A program made the translations under genes and the position numbers. The notes beneath the pieces are model-generated. The model was not told where the DNA came from and ran no database searches. It worked only from the letters and a program-made list of their open reading frames with translations. Shown here in pieces: positions 33,301 through 38,962 of a stretch of 56,328 bases of DNA. The stretch's first letter is position 1; each line of letters starts with the position of its first letter. Origin of the DNA: a virus (taxonomy: Duplodnaviria; Caudoviricetes); the IMG/VR virus record IMGVR_UViG_3300021963_000154, positions 1 to 56,328 of that record. One strand, 5' to 3'.

Positions 33301-34352
33301 ATCAGCGCACGGGCATTATCCCCACTGAAGGCGCTGCGCAATGCATCCTGCGTGTACATCTCGCCCAGTCTGGGGATTTCGTCTGCGGCACGCTGAACTC
33401 TTCGCTCACCATACGAGCCTTCACGGTTCTTGATGTATTCAGCCAGCTCGGAGATACCACTGCGGGTCATGATGCTGGGGGCTTCGACCTTGGGAAGCAT
33501 CCTGTTCGCCAGCTTGCGACCTGCACCACCACCAGCCATATGGACAGCGCCGCCGCTCTTCATGCCAAGCTGACGACGGACTTCCTCAAACGGAACTTGC
33601 GCCTGCTCGAACACGGCAGGAGGCTTGACTGCTCCGCCTTCTGCCTTCGTGATGTCAGGATTGGATGTGTCGTATGTGCCTTCGTTTCCGATGGCGGACT
33701 TAACTGCATTGGGGTTATACACACCAAGGTTCTTCACACCTTTTTCTTTGGCGTAAAAAGAATCATGCCCAAGCTCTTTGATTGACTCTTGGATTTCTGG
33801 GTTTTCAATTGACGTCCAGTTGCTTTCAGTCTTTGGGTTGCCTAAATGTTTTATGTACTCAACTATTGCATCGTCATCAATATCATTTGGTCGATGCTCA
33901 ATTAAATATGACCTTAGATTTTCAATATGCTTTGGGTTTTCATAATCGAATGGGTTCTTTGCCTGAACATACATTGGGTATATTGCAGGTCTTGCGAGTG
34001 GATCTGGGGTAATCGTTCCAGAAAATTTGTTTGCAAATTCATAGCTTGGAGTCATGAATAATGCATTTGCTGTCGGGTCTGAATACGAACCCATTTTGTT
34101 TAAATCGTCTGGTAGTTTAAAACTTGAGATGCCTTCGTCTGGAGCTGTTTTTACATAGCCCATGTCATCATCATAATAATGAGGGCTGGCATGATACATC
34201 CGATCTTTGATTGCGCTTCCTTCAAGCATCTTACCCAGATTCGCATCACGCTCAGCTTTAGGCATCACGCCCCGTGCGCGATCGACCGCCATCTCCATCT
34301 TCATCTGGGATGGAGTCTTGACCTTGGGTGCTTTAATTCCTGCCATAGCCAC
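30303..34352 (-). CDS. Polyvalent multidomain protein: ART-like, ParB-like and large EVQSDW domains
   Basis: MYHAS...FMTP...YPMYV..KNPFD...GHD...YNPNAVKSAIGN.G.YD..NPDI (ART-PolyVal-like); GHEGRHR (ParB/Srx-like); LPGGENYRE, SHW, DEVQSDWHQ, PDAPFK; domains separated by xAxGG/xKxGG linkers. Confidence 0.7.
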   Translation of the reverse strand: MAMAGIKAPKVKTPSQMKMEMAVDRARGVMPKAERDANLGKMLEGSAIKDRMYHASPHYYDDDMGYVKTAPDEGISSFKLPDDLNKMGSYSDPTANALFMTPSYEFANKFSGTITPDPLARPAIYPMYVQAKNPFDYENPKHIENLRSYLIEHRPNDIDDDAIVEYIKHLGNPKTESNWTSIENPEIQESIKELGHDSFYAKEKGVKNLGVYNPNAVKSAIGNEGTYDTSNPDITKAEGGAVKPPAVFEQAQVPFEEVRRQLGMKSGGAVHMAGGGAGRKLANRMLPKVEAPSIMTRSGISELAEYIKNREGSYGERRVQRAADEIPRLGEMYTQDALRSAFSGDNARALMTMNPADFEKFARPLELNPTTKVGGNKDKHDMSTEDYVKYLQGVGGFDQVPYLLVNKGVAGEVQLPWITGHEGRHRSRSLADSGITSSLVEFQPRAELREPFPRRSQAEYIDAIRKEMALTDNKVKPEQYWDDVAQQEIRRKMVQLPDLYAQGGAVHMKDGGDPDEIVDQAVMDQIRLELANQPTLKPTTDVNEQIANARRMADPARLSLDAGDAITSPEMYEQNKDLFSLNRKPSSQAYTEFGVPMVDAAGKSVPFPKTMHDIEIDKVEKQLEAGIKPSWMSGKDFIEDQAARKGYVTSPKTAGDFGQNAMAALMGSTFLGGTLKALGAADEAAQAVIGSSYGLDPTMGIIGQTGRLHRVPRGLSTIKEGIARDVGQFPNDFFNAQRGVTQGYPTLGSVTGDVVGKVAPIVSKIDDAVRLGYESGRIPQIGMSIKDVTPRVLAPANPQGFYSPTEAAALNLPRKSGSGQAFLNDLLKQENVRPDEINAMGLDEWLKGKKDVTAAEVQDYIAKNKIQLGEAVYQDKPSINKFAMQRGMSEDDANNVVTLARQGNPDAKKIVDEYANTNITKFQQYQLPGGENYREIVLTLPVKPLEGATLSKTDSGYWRVTYKDGDTAMFRTEREARDGMGGYNNYQSSHWDEANPLAHLRMSDRVTDGKKTLLVDEVQSDWHQAGREQGYKNDIDMPAMSADELLLDYGDKLSSGQKDYLKDFLSRWERAEQGTNENIRGQRLDNLSTEYESWAKRQKIAGVPDAPFKDDWYQLALKRAIKEAIDGGYDRVALPTGARVAERFDLSKQIDRIDYNKNDDGTYSMSAIKGGKEVFSKERLDENELSGLVGKDVAKKIVGDEGKAQYDADIADELGVGVVKSLTGLDLQVGGKGMKKYYDEIYPGYLKKFGKKYGANVGMTSVQTEPSTDRIFKDVGKYYAYTGQGRDTKEFNTYAEALKFLGIGSEPLHYMEITPAMREAFKEGIHMKRGGKVQFANNIDAMRLALSKG

Positions 34353-36057
34353 GCTCCATCATCTCGATCAGCATCTCTTCGGGAGATGGGTGAACAGCGC
34401 CGCCATGCTTCTTGACGACCTCTAAGCTCTCAGGCTTAATGATCTTGAACCACTCGTCGCGTCCGCCTGTTCCTGTCGCTGGGCGCTGGTAACCCCAGAA
34501 CCCGCCAGCCTCGGTGATGCCGGGCATCATGCGATCCATCGGCTGCTTGTTCGCTGACAGGAGGTCGTATATCTCCTCCCCAGTCATGCCTGTGTCCGCA
34601 GGTAAGCGGTTCCAGTACCGACGCATCTGGTTGACTTGCTCAGCCGTGTATGGCGTCTCGTCCATCCGCAGGAGCTTCTCTTCAGGGATGTCGTAACGAT
34701 TCACCATCGGCGGACCCTCCAACCCCAACTGACCCAGCTTATCCGAGCCGCGCTTGGTTGCGTACAAAGAGTCGGTCGTCACATGCAGGGGGCGCTCGTT
34801 GGTTGGCTTAATCTTCACAGGGCTGCCGTGCATGATACGCATCTTCCCGCCACCTGCCATTCGCTGCGGCTGGTTCATCAGCGCCAAGTTCGCCAAGTCC
34901 ATGTCCAGCATTCTGTATGCCTCAGGATCGGTAATCGTGTTCTTGATCGCCTCTTCGGGGGCGGATGTAACCATGCCACCGTCTGCCTTGCCGATCCTTG
35001 CCTCGCCCATCATGACTAAGTCGCGTGCCGTCTCAGGACTGACGCCGAGCCTACGAGCCGTATCCATTATCTGGTCGGCAATCATCTCTAGCTTGGGCGA
35101 TCCGATCGGTGTCGTCACCCCTGTCTGACCTGAGAACGCGCCCCATGTCCGAGCCTGCGCAGGGACAGACTCAATGCCGAGCTGCTCAGCGATCTTCTCT
35201 CGCCACCAAGGAGCGAGCTGTGTCATCTCAGGGTTGCTCACGCTTGCACCGAAGTTCTTCGATGTGCGTGTGTCGCCAAGACCAACAGCCCGCGACCAGT
35301 GCGCGTCACCAACTGGCGTGCGTGTCTGGAATCCAGTGTCAGGAACGCCGCTCGACTCAATGTAGAGCGGTACTTTCGGCGTGGTCATGGTGAACTCGCC
35401 GCTCTTCAGGTATTTGTCCATCGGCTCGGCTTGAGCGGTTCGGTGGTAGACATGACCCGGCACACCGATGATGTCCTCCGCCACTCCCGCAGCCTTGCGC
35501 CCCTTCTGAGGGATCGCTACGGACTCCATGAACTCGGGCCAGCGACCCTGCTTGTTCAGGAAGTAAGCCGCCGATCCTCGTGGAATCTCCGTCATGACCT
35601 CACTGCCCGGCGATGCCATCCCAGATAGGATGTTCATCTTTGTGTACTCTTCGATCGCCTTGTCTTTGCCCATCAGCTCAACCATGCGCTGGTAGAACGG
35701 ATCCATCACATACCACGGATCCATCCCACGCACGAGCTCTGGGAACTTCGTCGCCTCGGCGTTCACATCCAGAATGCGCTGCACATTCTTGGGTGTCATG
35801 ATCTTCTCTGCTGCCTCTGACCCTCTTGGGTTGGCTGCCGCACCGGGGAGCGCCCCCGGCAAGTTCCCCTCTCTGCTATTGACAATGTCCTGAAGGTCAG
35901 CCCTCGTGACACCGAACAGCCGCTTGAGGTTTGGGCTTTCTGGTGCAACCCTCGATGCAGCCTCTGCCGCTATCTTTGCTGGATTGTCGTAGATACCCGG
36001 AAACGCTATGCGCTCAGGTGATTTAACAGTGGGTCTTACCTTTGGTGGTTTTGCCAT
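34333..36057 (-). CDS. Polyvalent protein: HhH-glycosylase-like domain plus small ART-like domain
   Basis: WY...ASP...PKV...VGDAHW...IAEQLGI...AQARTW; then HGSP...LHVTTDSLYA; KADGG, MAGGG and KKHGG linkers. Confidence 0.55.
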   Translation of the reverse strand: MAKPPKVRPTVKSPERIAFPGIYDNPAKIAAEAASRVAPESPNLKRLFGVTRADLQDIVNSREGNLPGALPGAAANPRGSEAAEKIMTPKNVQRILDVNAEATKFPELVRGMDPWYVMDPFYQRMVELMGKDKAIEEYTKMNILSGMASPGSEVMTEIPRGSAAYFLNKQGRWPEFMESVAIPQKGRKAAGVAEDIIGVPGHVYHRTAQAEPMDKYLKSGEFTMTTPKVPLYIESSGVPDTGFQTRTPVGDAHWSRAVGLGDTRTSKNFGASVSNPEMTQLAPWWREKIAEQLGIESVPAQARTWGAFSGQTGVTTPIGSPKLEMIADQIMDTARRLGVSPETARDLVMMGEARIGKADGGMVTSAPEEAIKNTITDPEAYRMLDMDLANLALMNQPQRMAGGGKMRIMHGSPVKIKPTNERPLHVTTDSLYATKRGSDKLGQLGLEGPPMVNRYDIPEEKLLRMDETPYTAEQVNQMRRYWNRLPADTGMTGEEIYDLLSANKQPMDRMMPGITEAGGFWGYQRPATGTGGRDEWFKIIKPESLEVVKKHGGAVHPSPEEMLIEMMERGYGRN

Positions 36058-36059
36058 GA

Positions 36060-37499
36060 TCACGCCGCATATGGGTTCACCCGCTTGATGCGGGTATCGT
36101 CAACATAATCATTATCGTCGTAATGAGGTGCTGGGTCAATATCTAAGAAGCCAGCGTCCCTCAGGTATCGCAGGGCTTGGCTCATCGTATCTACATAGTC
36201 GTCATGGCTGGTCTCAGGGAATGCACACACCTGTTGCACGAACGGCTCGACCCAGTCCCTCACATAGCCCTTCTTCTTCGTGGACTCAGGCAGGTACACC
36301 CGCCCCGCTGCGATGATGTTCGATATCAGGTGGACACGCTGCACCTTGTCGAGCTTGCCGGGGTTATAGCCACGCACCTGAACATGCGCACGCCCTAAGT
36401 CCTGAATGAGTGACTGACCGCTCGCCTTCTCCTCGATCAGCACGAGATCGACCCGCTTGCCCGGCTCGCCGTACACCGCCGTGTAGTCCTCCAGCAGCTT
36501 GGGCTTCAAGTCAGGATAAGCCAGATGCTCTGACCAGCAGTCCAGAAGCATCGCACACAGCGGACGATCTAGCGGCTTGAATATCCCCCAGACCGAGCAC
36601 GCAGTCGGATCACCAGTCGTGCGCTCGGTGAACGCAGTGTCATAGCTCTGCAGGACATACTCAAACTGAGGGAACTCCCGCTCTGCGGGCCAGAGCCGGA
36701 ACCAGTCACGATTGATAATGCCACCTTCCTCAGGATCGATGATCTCAGCGTAAATTTCTTGCCTACCAATCTTCGTGCCTTCATAGCTGAGAATCTGCTC
36801 CCTGAATGATGGTGCTAGGTTATCGATGTTCGAGTATGTCGAAGCCGTCGTGACCACCACATTGTCGCCATCACGCCCGATCAGCTCCATAATCAGCTCT
36901 TTGGGCTTGGGGGTCGTCGTTGCAAGTATCCTTGTGTGGTCGCCCAGACGCACGGAGAACATGATCATGTCCCACGCCTCCCTGAGGTACTCCCAAGCCG
37001 CTAACTCATCGAGCCATGCCCCGTGGTACTGTCCGCCACGAAAGCGCTCTGGCTCAGAGCTGGGGACGCCCTTGATCAGCGAGCCATTGGTCAGCTTGAT
37101 CTCGTGGTACGACTTGTTGTAGTCCTTGATCAGCTCTCGCGGGATCACGCTCAGTAGTCCCGAATCGCCCTCAAAGCATGTCGAGCGGACATCAGCCGAT
37201 GTGGGGGCGGAGACCAGCCATCTACTATTAGGCGTCGTCCACGCCCACCAGCCTATCTGCTCAGCCGCCACCCTTGTCTTGCCAGCGCCACGACCAGCCA
37301 GCAGGAGCCAGATCGACCACCAGTCGCCCGAAGGTAGTATCTGGTGCTGATGCGCCGCTGACAGCCATTTAAGCCGCCAGTCGAACGCAATCTTCTGCTC
37401 AACTGGGGCGGTTTCGTACTCTTTCAGGAAGTCTGGGCTTTTCAGTAGCTCGATCGTATCCGACACGGCACTGGCAACGTTGCCACTAATCTTCTTCAT
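36060..37499 (-). CDS. terL: Terminase large subunit
   Basis: Walker A LAGRGAGKT, Walker B AWLDELAAW, TTTP, nuclease SYDTA, IEEKASG, HDDYVD. Confidence 0.95.
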   Translation of the reverse strand: MKKISGNVASAVSDTIELLKSPDFLKEYETAPVEQKIAFDWRLKWLSAAHQHQILPSGDWWSIWLLLAGRGAGKTRVAAEQIGWWAWTTPNSRWLVSAPTSADVRSTCFEGDSGLLSVIPRELIKDYNKSYHEIKLTNGSLIKGVPSSEPERFRGGQYHGAWLDELAAWEYLREAWDMIMFSVRLGDHTRILATTTPKPKELIMELIGRDGDNVVVTTASTYSNIDNLAPSFREQILSYEGTKIGRQEIYAEIIDPEEGGIINRDWFRLWPAEREFPQFEYVLQSYDTAFTERTTGDPTACSVWGIFKPLDRPLCAMLLDCWSEHLAYPDLKPKLLEDYTAVYGEPGKRVDLVLIEEKASGQSLIQDLGRAHVQVRGYNPGKLDKVQRVHLISNIIAAGRVYLPESTKKKGYVRDWVEPFVQQVCAFPETSHDDYVDTMSQALRYLRDAGFLDIDPAPHYDDNDYVDDTRIKRVNPYAA

Positions 37500-37977
37500 T
37501 CTGGAGCTGAAGCTTGCGTTCAAGGTTGGTGATCACATCATCCAGCACGCCAGAGTGCTTGACCTCAATCGGTGCTTCCTTGTCGCCAGCAATCGTTGTG
37601 CGCTCGCCATACTTCTTGGGCTTGAGCTTGGATGCCACCCACTTACGGGCATCAACACGCAACCGATTGCGCTGGATGCCAGCAGGATCAACCCGCTTGG
37701 TGACCTTCCCATCCTCGTCGGTGATGACCATCATGGGGACTTCTTCCCCGATGTCCACGATCTCGTCGGAGTAGGTATCCGCTTGATCTTCCCGCGCGCG
37801 AGCGTATTTGTCACAAAAGTCTTTGTCTTTGAACAACCACCGATACACAGTCGCCACCGTGGGCATATGCTCATCCTTGCATATCTTGGTGAGTGACTGT
37901 CCCTCCGCTATGCGTGTACATATCTCGACAGCGAGGTCTTCGGTGTACTTCGTAGGTCTTCCCATCTTAGCCATCAT
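37486..37977 (-). CDS. terS: Terminase small subunit
   Basis: GRPTKYT...ICTRIAEGQSL..IC...MP...TVYRWL...YARARE, RLRVDARKW.ASKL.PKKYG. Confidence 0.9.
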   Translation of the reverse strand: MMAKMGRPTKYTEDLAVEICTRIAEGQSLTKICKDEHMPTVATVYRWLFKDKDFCDKYARAREDQADTYSDEIVDIGEEVPMMVITDEDGKVTKRVDPAGIQRNRLRVDARKWVASKLKPKKYGERTTIAGDKEAPIEVKHSGVLDDVITNLERKLQLQNEED

Positions 37978-38029
37978 GCTTTCTCTCAAGGCATTGTGAT
38001 GGTGGAATTGTAGTGTTGTTTCGGCGCAT

Positions 38030-38430
38030 TCGCTACTTCCTGTTTATGCGGACTAGGAAACAGTACGGAGTCTTCGGGCAAAACTCCCCCAAGGGTAGCC
38101 GTAGCCGCCCCCGAGGTGTTCCGTGCTGACTGAGGTATCCAGTGACTATCGCAACGGGCTGTGCTTATCGCTCATTATTCCAGCACAACTGATCAGACTA
38201 TCGCTCCCTAATGTGCGGGAACCCGATACCGCTCTGACCGAGCTTGTCATCACAGGGTGCTCTGGATTCAGCTCTCCCGCCAGATTGACCTGACGGAGCT
38301 ACACCCATTGCGTGGTGCTACCTGTGACCGCTCTCAACTCCCACGGTTGGCGCTTTCGCTTAGTTCGCCACTTCCATCTACATGACCCGATGCGTATTCA
38401 GCCTAAAATCATCATGTATGACGGGAAAAT
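38030..38430 (-). ncRNA. Candidate large structured non-coding RNA upstream of terS
   Basis: No credible ORF; many nested stems (TACATGA/TCATGTA, TCACAGG/CCTGTGA, GGTCAGA/TCTGATC, TGTGCT/AGCACA). Confidence 0.45.
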
Positions 38431-38545
38431 AAAAAAAACCGCTTTAGTCTATGCCCCGATTGGAAATTTGATCTTTGTGGGATCAAGCCCCCTTGCGGGG
38501 CGGGACACAGATTAAAGCGGTCTTCTCTCATCGGATTTCCAAGCC
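38431..38545 (-). ncRNA. c4-antisense-like RNA / attenuator
   Basis: Long basal stem (38438-38457 with 38502-38521) followed by a U-tract, GCAA-capped and TTGATC/GATCAA inner hairpins, unpaired AUUUCCAA complementary to upstream UUGGAAAU (38535-38542). Confidence 0.6.
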
Positions 38546-38560
38546 CGACAATATAATTAA

Positions 38561-38588
38561 ATTTTACTACTCCTACATACTTTGTCAA
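38561..38588 (-). promoter_or_regulatory. Sigma70-type promoter
   Basis: TTGACA-N16-TAAAAT on the minus strand, directly upstream of the c4-like element. Confidence 0.65.
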
Positions 38589-38599
38589 GCGATTTAATA

Positions 38600-38839
38600 C
38601 TACAACTCGTAATCTGGATCGTAATCCCAAAAAATGACTGGGGTAGCATCACCAACATAAGCACCCTCGACATTGAACGATATCCACTCTCTCGCCTCCT
38701 CCTCGGTCATGCCTTCCGACATGAAGTGCTCGACCATCTTATTGCCGCTATAGACCGTCCTAAGCACCTTGGCTCCATTTGTAAGCCAGACCTCGCTCAT
38801 TCCTACAAGGGCGCTATCTAATCCGTCAAAAGTAATCAT
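38600..38839 (-). CDS. Conserved phage hypothetical protein
   Basis: DGLDSALVG...VYS...GMTEEEAREWISFNVEGAYVG..TP; AAGGA RBS. Confidence 0.7.
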   Translation of the reverse strand: MITFDGLDSALVGMSEVWLTNGAKVLRTVYSGNKMVEHFMSEGMTEEEAREWISFNVEGAYVGDATPVIFWDYDPDYEL

Positions 38840-38856
38840 TGGTGTCCTTTGTTTGG

Positions 38857-38962
38857 GTGGGTTCCCATAAAGCAGGGTCGAAATCAAAGATTGGCGAGAG
38901 TGCAAGTGCCTGCCAAGGTACTCATTTCTACGCCAGTTGGGGCGCTAACCCCCAACACCCAC
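38857..38962 (-). ncRNA. Candidate ~105-nt multi-stem RNA element
   Basis: Closing GTGGGT/ACCCAC enclosing hairpins GTTGGGGG-TTAGCG-CCCCAAC, TGGCG..CGCCA and CCC-TGCTTTAT-GGG; intergenic. Confidence 0.45.

Follow-up and report, generated by a model that had tools for sequence, protein, structure and literature searches.

Large RNAs with complex conserved folds are rare in bacteria and phages, and the examples that have been studied (rRNAs, RNase P, group I and group II introns and, lately, GOLLD, ROOL and OLE) proved to be catalysts or unusual assemblies. Lambdoid phages carry tRNA or accessory genes just past their late promoter-terminator, PR'-tR' (Stx phages, for example, have tRNA and toxin genes there), and class C group II introns insert 3' of terminator-like hairpins, their forms without an open reading frame (ORF) being similar in size to the element described here. 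This element lies upstream of terS, the gene for the small terminase subunit, in virus record IMGVR_UViG_3300021963_000154, a complete record of 56,328 nt with genes mainly on the minus strand (the whole record is called the window below, and related loci and contigs bear labels from L002 to L200). Comparison with homologues shows that a folded RNA, about 375 nt long, is encoded on the minus strand of 38046-38420 and represents a family outside Rfam 15. The gene orders of relatives further show it to be an exchangeable cassette: close relatives carry other non-coding RNAs (ncRNAs) or small genes in its place, and more distant phages carry the RNA before another operon. The novelty claimed on these sequence comparisons is that of an RNA family, not of a mechanism.

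Homologues of the RNA came from pattern scans. Relatives fetched through TerS (80/584 kept) lack the gene-free stretch containing it by both blastn and nhmmer, and a blastn search of 50,697 phage records gave no match to the stretch. The TerS-fetched loci first suggested a variable, unconserved spacer, a view that the homologues from the pattern scans overturned; the TerS-based search missed the RNA-bearing phages because terS is mosaic in them. When L082, L083 and L088 are compared with 37620-37916 of the window, the first ~25 codons and the terL-proximal end of terS are 87-94% identical at the DNA level and the middle is unmatched. An exact 24-mer scan of the viral collection yielded 11 contigs, looser gapped patterns added L182, L194, L197, L198 and L199, and a profile search recovered L008, a distant relative in which the 3' motifs alone are kept (its tail and Pi region are all that still aligns). 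Altogether the RNA occurs on 17 viral contigs besides the window, with 12 distinct full-length sequences; the pattern matches in L195, L196 and L200 are false positives, lying within coding sequence and having no profile match. A metagenome scan gave nine contigs, in all of which the RNA is identical to viral copies. In the window itself the nhmmer profile matches 38439-38032 (E 2.4e-154), and both the RNA and the module upstream of it are present in single copy.

In the contigs found with the 24-mer, the non-coding stretch is as conserved as the neighbouring terL gene, or more so. Relative to the window, the RNA is 98.0-99.0% identical in L082, L083, L086 and L088 (terL DNA 87.4-89.5%), 88% in L087 (terL DNA 80.9%), 90% in the L084 group (terL DNA 81.5%) and 87% in the L085 group (terL DNA 69-70%). 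Aligned homologues show purifying selection on nearly every base of the 3' half of the RNA.

This conservation is accompanied by covariation. With eight sequences RNAalifold gave 117 pairs, 13 of them changed on both sides, and a curated model was built from stacked covarying pairs, read partly from the window's own sequence. Over nine sequences this model has 81 pairs with 98.8% of cells paired (35.0-44.7% with the partners slid), and 16 pairs are changed on both sides, compared with 6.3±1.6 in shuffles (0/500 reach 16) and 0-1 when slid. Over 12 sequences it comprises 84 pairs, and of 1005 cells 97.2% are paired (36.4-42.4% with the partners slid by 1-3 columns), and 25 pairs are changed on both sides, compared with 11.3±2.1 in shuffles (0/500 reach 25) and 1-5 when slid. 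The alignments show at least nine covarying helices: Pa, Pb, Pc, Pd1, Pd2, Pg, Ph and Pj are well supported, and Pe has one double change. They also show that the loops of two adjacent hairpins, Pg and Ph, pair with each other; the changes in this kissing helix are carried by 4/12 and 3/12 sequences (L182, L194, L198, L199). RNAalifold also paired the 3' tail with the Pf/Pg arm's internal loop, and GAUAGUCUGAU with a downstream segment. Both pairings were dropped for the Pf helix, which one-sided changes in L087, L182 and L194 support.

The same alignments indicate which strand is the working one. The cells of the model hold 91 G·U but four A·C combinations, and the minus-strand transcript is 98.8% paired versus 86.8% for the plus strand; the excess of G·U over A·C thus establishes the minus strand. 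A first-pass annotation of this DNA, made from its letters alone, had named eight stems here, and all of them are present in the minus-strand sequence. Seven are kept in relatives, six with changes on both sides (UACAUGA/UCAUGUA, UCACAGG/CCUGUGA, the AGCU stem, the GUCAG stem, UUCCC/GGGAG and UGUGCU/AGCACA) and one, GGUCAGA/UCUGAUC, with one-sided changes only and 100% of cells paired. The eighth, a terminal CUGUUU/AAACAG, lacks conservation, its two sides being complementary in no sequences but L087 and those of the window's group, and it lies at or past the conserved 3' boundary.

The annotation had also described this part as the longest gene-free stretch of the genome and as not AT-rich. 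Both descriptions hold, the stretch being the longest at ORF cut-offs of 60, 70 and 80 aa (37990-38599, 37990-38411 or 38000-38311, according to the cut-off) and its GC content being 0.53-0.57 over 38000-38399. Short ORFs of 35-67 aa do occur within it, and these, with a single-sequence folding energy within the range of shuffled sequences, are what could be said for a decayed protein-coding gene or for stems formed by chance. Set against this are a conservation above that of terL, the 25 pairs changed on both sides, and the lack of an ORF conserved in any frame, the longest open frames differing in frame and strand among the homologues and the indels being of 1-2 nt; nor does tblastn find similarity between the stretch and a 169-aa ORF present in L002. 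Barring artefacts in the alignments, this reading can be taken as refuted. The homologue alignments, checked for a degraded or frameshifted ORF and for an absence of covariation, display neither, and the proposal of a large phage ncRNA is borne out by the covariation, the strand asymmetry in G·U pairs, the missing conserved ORF and the lack of tRNA, tmRNA and Rfam matches.

As regards the last of these, the 4227 families of Rfam 15 give no match at gathering scores across the whole window. At E≤10 over 37900-38700 the only match is a weak one to isrK (17.9 bits, E 0.23) on the hairpin upstream of the RNA, with none on the RNA itself and with Betaproteobacteria-1 (RF02932) not among the matches; the divergent homologues L198 and L008 have no relevant match at E≤10. 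ARAGORN finds no tRNA or tmRNA gene in the window or in 13 related loci. The earlier statement that no tRNA, tmRNA or intron pattern could be recognised is therefore upheld by ARAGORN and by Rfam. The word "undescribed" stands as far as Rfam 15 and the literature that we searched are concerned, in which no RNA of this kind upstream of terS was found; it is less secure with regard to a catalogue published in 2023 (PMC10690425), which draws 8,495 candidate RNAs from the same viral collection and, as far as the accessible part of that source goes, may list it.

One class of large RNA deserves separate mention in this connection, as the element could be the remnant of a mobile self-splicing intron that targets terminators, either one of group I or an ORF-less one similar to class C of group II. 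It lies directly 3' of a hairpin-plus-U-run in two unrelated contexts, as insertions of class C introns do, it is present or absent among close relatives, and it is conserved well beyond its flanking genes. Yet the group I and group II models of Rfam are unmatched at E≤10 in the window, L198 and L008, no reverse-transcriptase or endonuclease ORF and no conserved frame is found, and an informal inspection of the alignment against the group II consensus revealed no canonical ends or domain V. The flanks moreover differ between contexts, no ORF is interrupted, and relatives hold other cargo in place of an empty site. An intron remnant is thus highly improbable.

The positions of the RNA, its helices and the adjoining features are collected in Table 1.

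Table 1. Features of the RNA locus, with coordinates in the window
Feature	Coordinates	Strand	Evidence or remarks
Promoter, structured leader, long closing hairpin and U-run	38432..38588	minus	Promoter scan, folding z, conservation
Conserved RNA core, ~375 nt	38046..38420	minus	From first covarying hairpin to invariant 3' tail ending GCAU; alignments of 8, 9 and 12 distinct homologues
Hairpin Pa	38379..38418	minus	38418-38412 with 38385-38379; conserved 26-nt loop; 7 pairs, 5 changed on both sides, 100% paired
Hairpin Pb	38348..38370	minus	38370-38366 with 38352-38348; conserved 13-nt loop; 5 pairs, 3 changed on both sides, 100% paired
Domain closed by Pe and Pc, enclosing arm Pd1-Pd2	38240..38333	minus	95-100% of cells paired
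Pe	38333-38330 with 38243-38240	minus	1/4 pairs changed on both sides
Pc	38328-38321 with 38256-38249	minus	3/8 pairs changed on both sides
Pd1	38301-38297 with 38273-38269	minus	2/5 pairs changed on both sides
Pd2	38296-38289 with 38284-38277	minus	2/8 pairs changed on both sides
Pf (long arm 38191..38239)	38239-38233 with 38197-38191	minus	7 pairs, 100% paired, one-sided changes only
Pg (long arm 38191..38239)	38222-38217 with 38208-38203	minus	6 pairs, 3 changed on both sides
Hairpin Ph	38158..38189	minus	38189-38182 with 38165-38158; 16-nt loop; 8 pairs, 2 changed on both sides (L194, L198, L199), 97.9% paired
Kissing helix K, Pg loop with Ph loop	38213-38209 with 38177-38173	minus	5 pairs, 2 changed on both sides, 95% paired
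3' domain: Pj, Pi, Pk, Pz and near-invariant tail 38064-38046	38047..38153	minus	
Pj	38115-38108 with 38095-88	minus	2 pairs changed on both sides
Pi	38143-38139 with 38133-38129	minus	No covariation
Pk	38087-84 with 38070-67	minus	No covariation
Pz	38153-50 with 38050-47	minus	No covariation
Spacer and terS 5' untranslated region	37990..38045	minus	Sequence comparison with relatives
terS (small terminase subunit, Sf6-like)	37486..37989	minus	Pfam PF20901, E 4.7e-40
terL	36060-37523	minus	PF03237, E 1.1e-22; PF17289, E 1.6e-10
576-aa ORF in the usual portal position, downstream of terL	34333-36063		No Pfam match

The RNA is preceded by a conserved module. Its promoter, noted in the first-pass annotation for a TTGACA box upstream of the stretch, is confirmed as TTGACA-16-TAAAAT (38588..38561, minus strand), with 11/12 matches to sigma-70-type elements (-35 at 38588-38583, -10 at 38566-38561). 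In the leader that follows, a long stem closes off two inner hairpins and is itself followed by eight U (38439-38432), so that the hairpin-plus-U8 spans 38432-38524; the 120-nt window 38420-38539 folds at z -7.66 versus shuffles, far better than the RNA stretch. Identity in the module is 75-95% in relatives, whether they bear the RNA or not, compensatory changes are visible in an inner hairpin, and the module (38421-38570) is conserved in 5/80 loci fetched through TerS. It looks like a late-promoter/terminator or small-RNA unit: as in lambdoid phages, a strong sigma-70 promoter is followed within ~150 nt by a predicted intrinsic terminator, ahead of late genes. The RNA always starts a few bases past the hairpin-plus-U-run, behind two unrelated types of leader, the first in the window's group, L084, L085 and L087 (diverged in L194) and the second in L182, L198, L199 and L008. 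A purine-rich 15-nt stretch at 37981-37995 recurs at 80% in the upstream leader (38523-38537).

On the side away from terS, the gene-free stretch is bounded by a small ORF that ends at 38600. The replication genes of the window phage lie 8-11 kb upstream of the RNA, and a Holliday-junction resolvase gene lies ~7 kb upstream on the same strand.

What follows the module is variable. The terL relatives L102-L104, L108-L111 and L115-L121 (86-95% TerL identity) lack the RNA and retain the type-1 module. The slot between terminator module and terS is filled in L115 (1535-1651, 95.6 bits) and L002 (2161-2282, 90.3 bits) by a Betaproteobacteria-1 RNA, and in others by a second conserved non-coding element of ~255 nt (L003:1421-1680, L121:1690-1945, L119:1452-1642; 84-92% identical), which has no Rfam match at gathering scores and no tRNA in L003 or L121 and may be a further unknown RNA. 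Small genes are also found there: 1) DUF5710 genes in L102 and L119; 2) Lar-like restriction-alleviation genes (PF14354) between the RNA and terS in two lineages, L122:1689-2045 (E 8.6e-13) and L113:1550-1825 (E 9.6e-10); 3) a cysteine-rich, zinc-ribbon-like ORF of 76-83 aa with no family match, which recurs in L198:2166-2408, L194:2738-2989, L113:1822-2052 and L115:1777-2007, immediately following the RNA in L194, L198 and L199 and standing behind other cargo in L113 and L115. The final ~35 nt before the terS start (37990-38025, minus strand) are conserved in relatives irrespective of the upstream cargo and are common to all cargo types, so exchange seems to occur between the terminator and the terS untranslated region.

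The gene downstream of the RNA also differs. It is terS in the group to which the window belongs; L086 and L084 have Lar there, L008 has a DUF5710-like ORF, and L194 has the zinc-ribbon-like ORF and then other genes. Three of the 12 distinct sequences (L182, L198, L199) have the RNA at the head of a replication operon instead of terS: genes for a ParB-like protein, a helicase and a primase follow it directly in L182, and after the zinc-ribbon-like ORF (80 aa) in L198 and L199. In L182 and L199 a Holliday-junction resolvase gene lies directly upstream of the module and RNA. No phage protein was found to accompany the RNA: of the 80 window ORFs, none is shared by the three RNA-bearing records while missing from both RNA-lacking ones. 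Among these five records, two with the RNA and one without it are 68-80% complete.

These contexts bear on the packaging-associated role that had been proposed, whether for a packaging RNA or for a packaging or origin site in the DNA (pac, cos, ori) tied to the terminase genes. In the window, as in most homologues, the RNA does stand directly ahead of terS-terL-portal. It is nevertheless missing from relatives with 94-95% identical TerL, in L182, L198 and L199 it comes before genes for a ParB-like protein, a helicase and a primase (with the resolvase gene upstream in L182 and L199), and the Rfam pRNA family is unmatched; the ratio of G·U to A·C and the loop-loop covariation, for their part, indicate an RNA and not duplex DNA. 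The link to packaging is positional, not obligatory, and a packaging RNA or site is barely credible. The alternative suggestion of a replication primer or origin found no support.

Sequencing data add some information on the variability and transcription of the locus. Parts of 37700-38900 were found in 24 public sequencing runs from 21 studies, all as contigs, of which four runs were compared; the gap region is 97-100% identical in these four, and contigs in two runs diverge to unlike sequence at 38038/38039. A contig of run X3 joins 38170 to 38320, omitting 149 nt of the RNA, and could be a deletion variant or a misassembly. A metatranscriptome contig of 185 nt matches 38007-38189 without difference and crosses the 3' boundary of the RNA into the terS leader, which offers weak support for transcription and for continuity into that leader.

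The host is probably betaproteobacterial, the metagenome-assembled genomes (MAGs) with terL relatives being labelled Fluviibacter, Burkholderiaceae, Burkholderiales and Thiobacillus, with one Caulobacter; a freshwater member of the Burkholderiales is probable. The RNA itself was not recovered from bacteria: exact-pattern scans of species-representative bacterial genomes gave no match for two patterns, a DNA search of four MAGs carrying terL relatives gave none, and it was not found among 401 genomes from the order to which one such MAG belongs, a lone 32-nt match there (E 9.1e-4) being taken as chance. Betaproteobacteria-1 occurs in one of 151 bacterial genomes searched, a single instance, beside an ATPase-like ORF with a CxxC motif.

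The reading that we favour, and consider probable though by no means assured, is that the RNA is an exchangeable, free-standing cargo, made by read-through of the terminator and acting apart from any control of terS. Polymerase from the promoter at 38588-38561 would read through the hairpin-plus-U8, so that the RNA would form the first part of the terS-terL-portal transcript; read-through is proposed since the locus leaves no space for a separate promoter. At best guess, the folded RNA would then be cut from the operon leader, or kept out of it, and would have a host factor or the RNA itself as its target; it could serve as a decoy or scaffold, for instance, or form a self-assembling particle, and would not be a switch for terS. 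We favour such a free-standing cargo because the downstream gene varies, because size and constraint go beyond those of known leader devices, because the slot also harbours orphan RNAs and anti-restriction genes, and because no phage protein co-occurs.

A number of points weigh against this reading. With respect to the RNA as such, the minus strand of the 411-nt stretch folds at z -1.87, equalled by 6/100 shuffles (the plus strand, at z -0.70, does no better), and local 120-nt windows within 38020-38419 give z -1.07 to +1.39; the RNA is shown to be real by comparison with relatives, not by the folding energy of a single sequence. The 12 sequences represent about seven lineages, so that inherited changes enter into the counts of covarying pairs; the shuffle control takes no account of relatedness, and the slid control favours a structure derived from the window's sequence. 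Pi, Pk and Pz show no covariation, are 85-93% paired and are broken in L198 and L199, and they are still counted in the model. With respect to expression, the hairpin-plus-U-run is a putative terminator, recognised by its sequence, and no Q-type antiterminator gene was identified with Pfam and PHROGs among 16 window ORFs and the related-locus ORFs scanned, a scan that most small window ORFs fall outside. The sole RNA-library contig has a depth of 3.1 and could derive from contaminating DNA. With respect to action, that in trans is a guess, and an ORF with a ribosome-binding site starts ~20 nt or less from the 3' end of the RNA in L084, L086, L194, L198, L199 and L008.

This last point would suit a cis-acting leader that stays on the operon transcript and controls it, whether by protecting the 5' end against decay, by keeping Rho from loading on the long untranslated leader, by making polymerase resist later terminators or by acting on translation of the first ORF. 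The RNA is always the first element of the operon, right after the promoter-leader-terminator module, the ribosome-binding site of the next ORF is thus close by in six lineages, the RNA-library contig spans the 3' boundary into the terS leader, and other RNAs occupy the same slot in relatives, as if a leader RNA were always wanted. The gene downstream is however inconstant (terS, Lar, the zinc-ribbon ORF, the DUF5710 ORF or the ParB-like gene), which is not the pattern of a leader or riboswitch, and in the window a 55-nt unrelated spacer, common to RNA-lacking relatives, separates the RNA from the terS start. Its 375 nt, near-invariant loops and kissing helix far exceed the needs of known leader devices, and alternative terminator/anti-terminator pairing was not seen. 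We therefore hold control in cis to be unlikely.

Free-standing cargo could also take a more elaborate form, namely that of an ornate RNA that is catalytic or that self-assembles in the manner of GOLLD and ROOL, its loop-loop helix joining separate copies; this overlaps with the favoured reading inasmuch as both suppose a free-standing RNA. The RNA is large, with many helices and near-invariant junctions and loops, it has a 5-bp loop-loop helix with two covarying pairs, and it is phage-borne and exchangeable with no co-occurring phage protein. GOLLD and ROOL assemblies are held together by intermolecular kissing loops, according to the accessible part of PMC12286853. On the other side, there is no similarity to GOLLD, ROOL, OLE or any ribozyme family of Rfam, tRNA genes were not found nearby in the window or in the 13 related loci, and the two loops sit on adjacent hairpins, so that an intramolecular contact is at least equally likely. 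Such an ornate RNA is, on balance, very doubtful. A bolder conjecture, and one that we regard as quite unlikely, is that this RNA is the first of a new class of large autonomous phage RNAs, ribozymes or self-assembling particles (the latter built through the covarying loop-loop contact), which phages would swap as cassettes heading terminator-controlled operons and use against a host function such as defence. An anti-host-defence use would fit the Lar anti-restriction genes found in the same slot.

Whatever its activity, this is an RNA that is more tightly conserved than the adjoining terminase gene, that has a covarying tertiary contact and that is traded among different freshwater phages. 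Its sharing of a slot with Betaproteobacteria-1, another non-coding element and anti-restriction genes provides a genomic handle on the roles of orphan RNAs, as well as natural swap controls.

Among known systems, Betaproteobacteria-1 occupies precisely this slot, being likewise a structured orphan RNA that comes after the same module and ahead of terS in L115 and L002. It differs in its size (120 nt versus ~375 nt), and its model is unmatched even at E≤10. The two elements have only three 8-9-mers in common beyond their common flank, which were not counted as homology. The accessible part of the main text of PMC5737381 does not discuss Betaproteobacteria-1.

The pRNA of phi29 is similar in being a phage RNA near packaging genes with complementary, covarying loops. 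In contrast with it, the window RNA has no match to the model, is dispensable in relatives with near-identical TerL, coexists with a TerS and sometimes lies beside replication genes. Class C group II introns are similar only in their position immediately 3' of a terminator-like hairpin; the RNA differs from them in lacking a domain V/VI match, a reverse-transcriptase ORF and any conserved flanking target beyond the hairpin. GOLLD and ROOL, often located in phages and prophages, resemble it as large, multi-helix, phage-associated ncRNAs that are present or absent among relatives, and loop-loop pairing is important to their assembly, as far as the accessible parts of PMC5737381 and PMC12286853 go. 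Their models are unmatched, and the window RNA is smaller, is not beside tRNA genes and has a fixed place behind a putative terminator at the head of an operon.

The organization of the locus compares well with the PR'-tR' region of lambdoid phages, with a strong, constitutive-looking promoter, a short structured transcript, a predicted intrinsic terminator, exchangeable cargo and late genes in the same order, and with a resolvase gene upstream. It differs in that no Q-like antiterminator was identified among the ORFs scanned, in that a replication operon takes the place of the late genes in L182, L198 and L199, and in that the cargo is a large orphan RNA.

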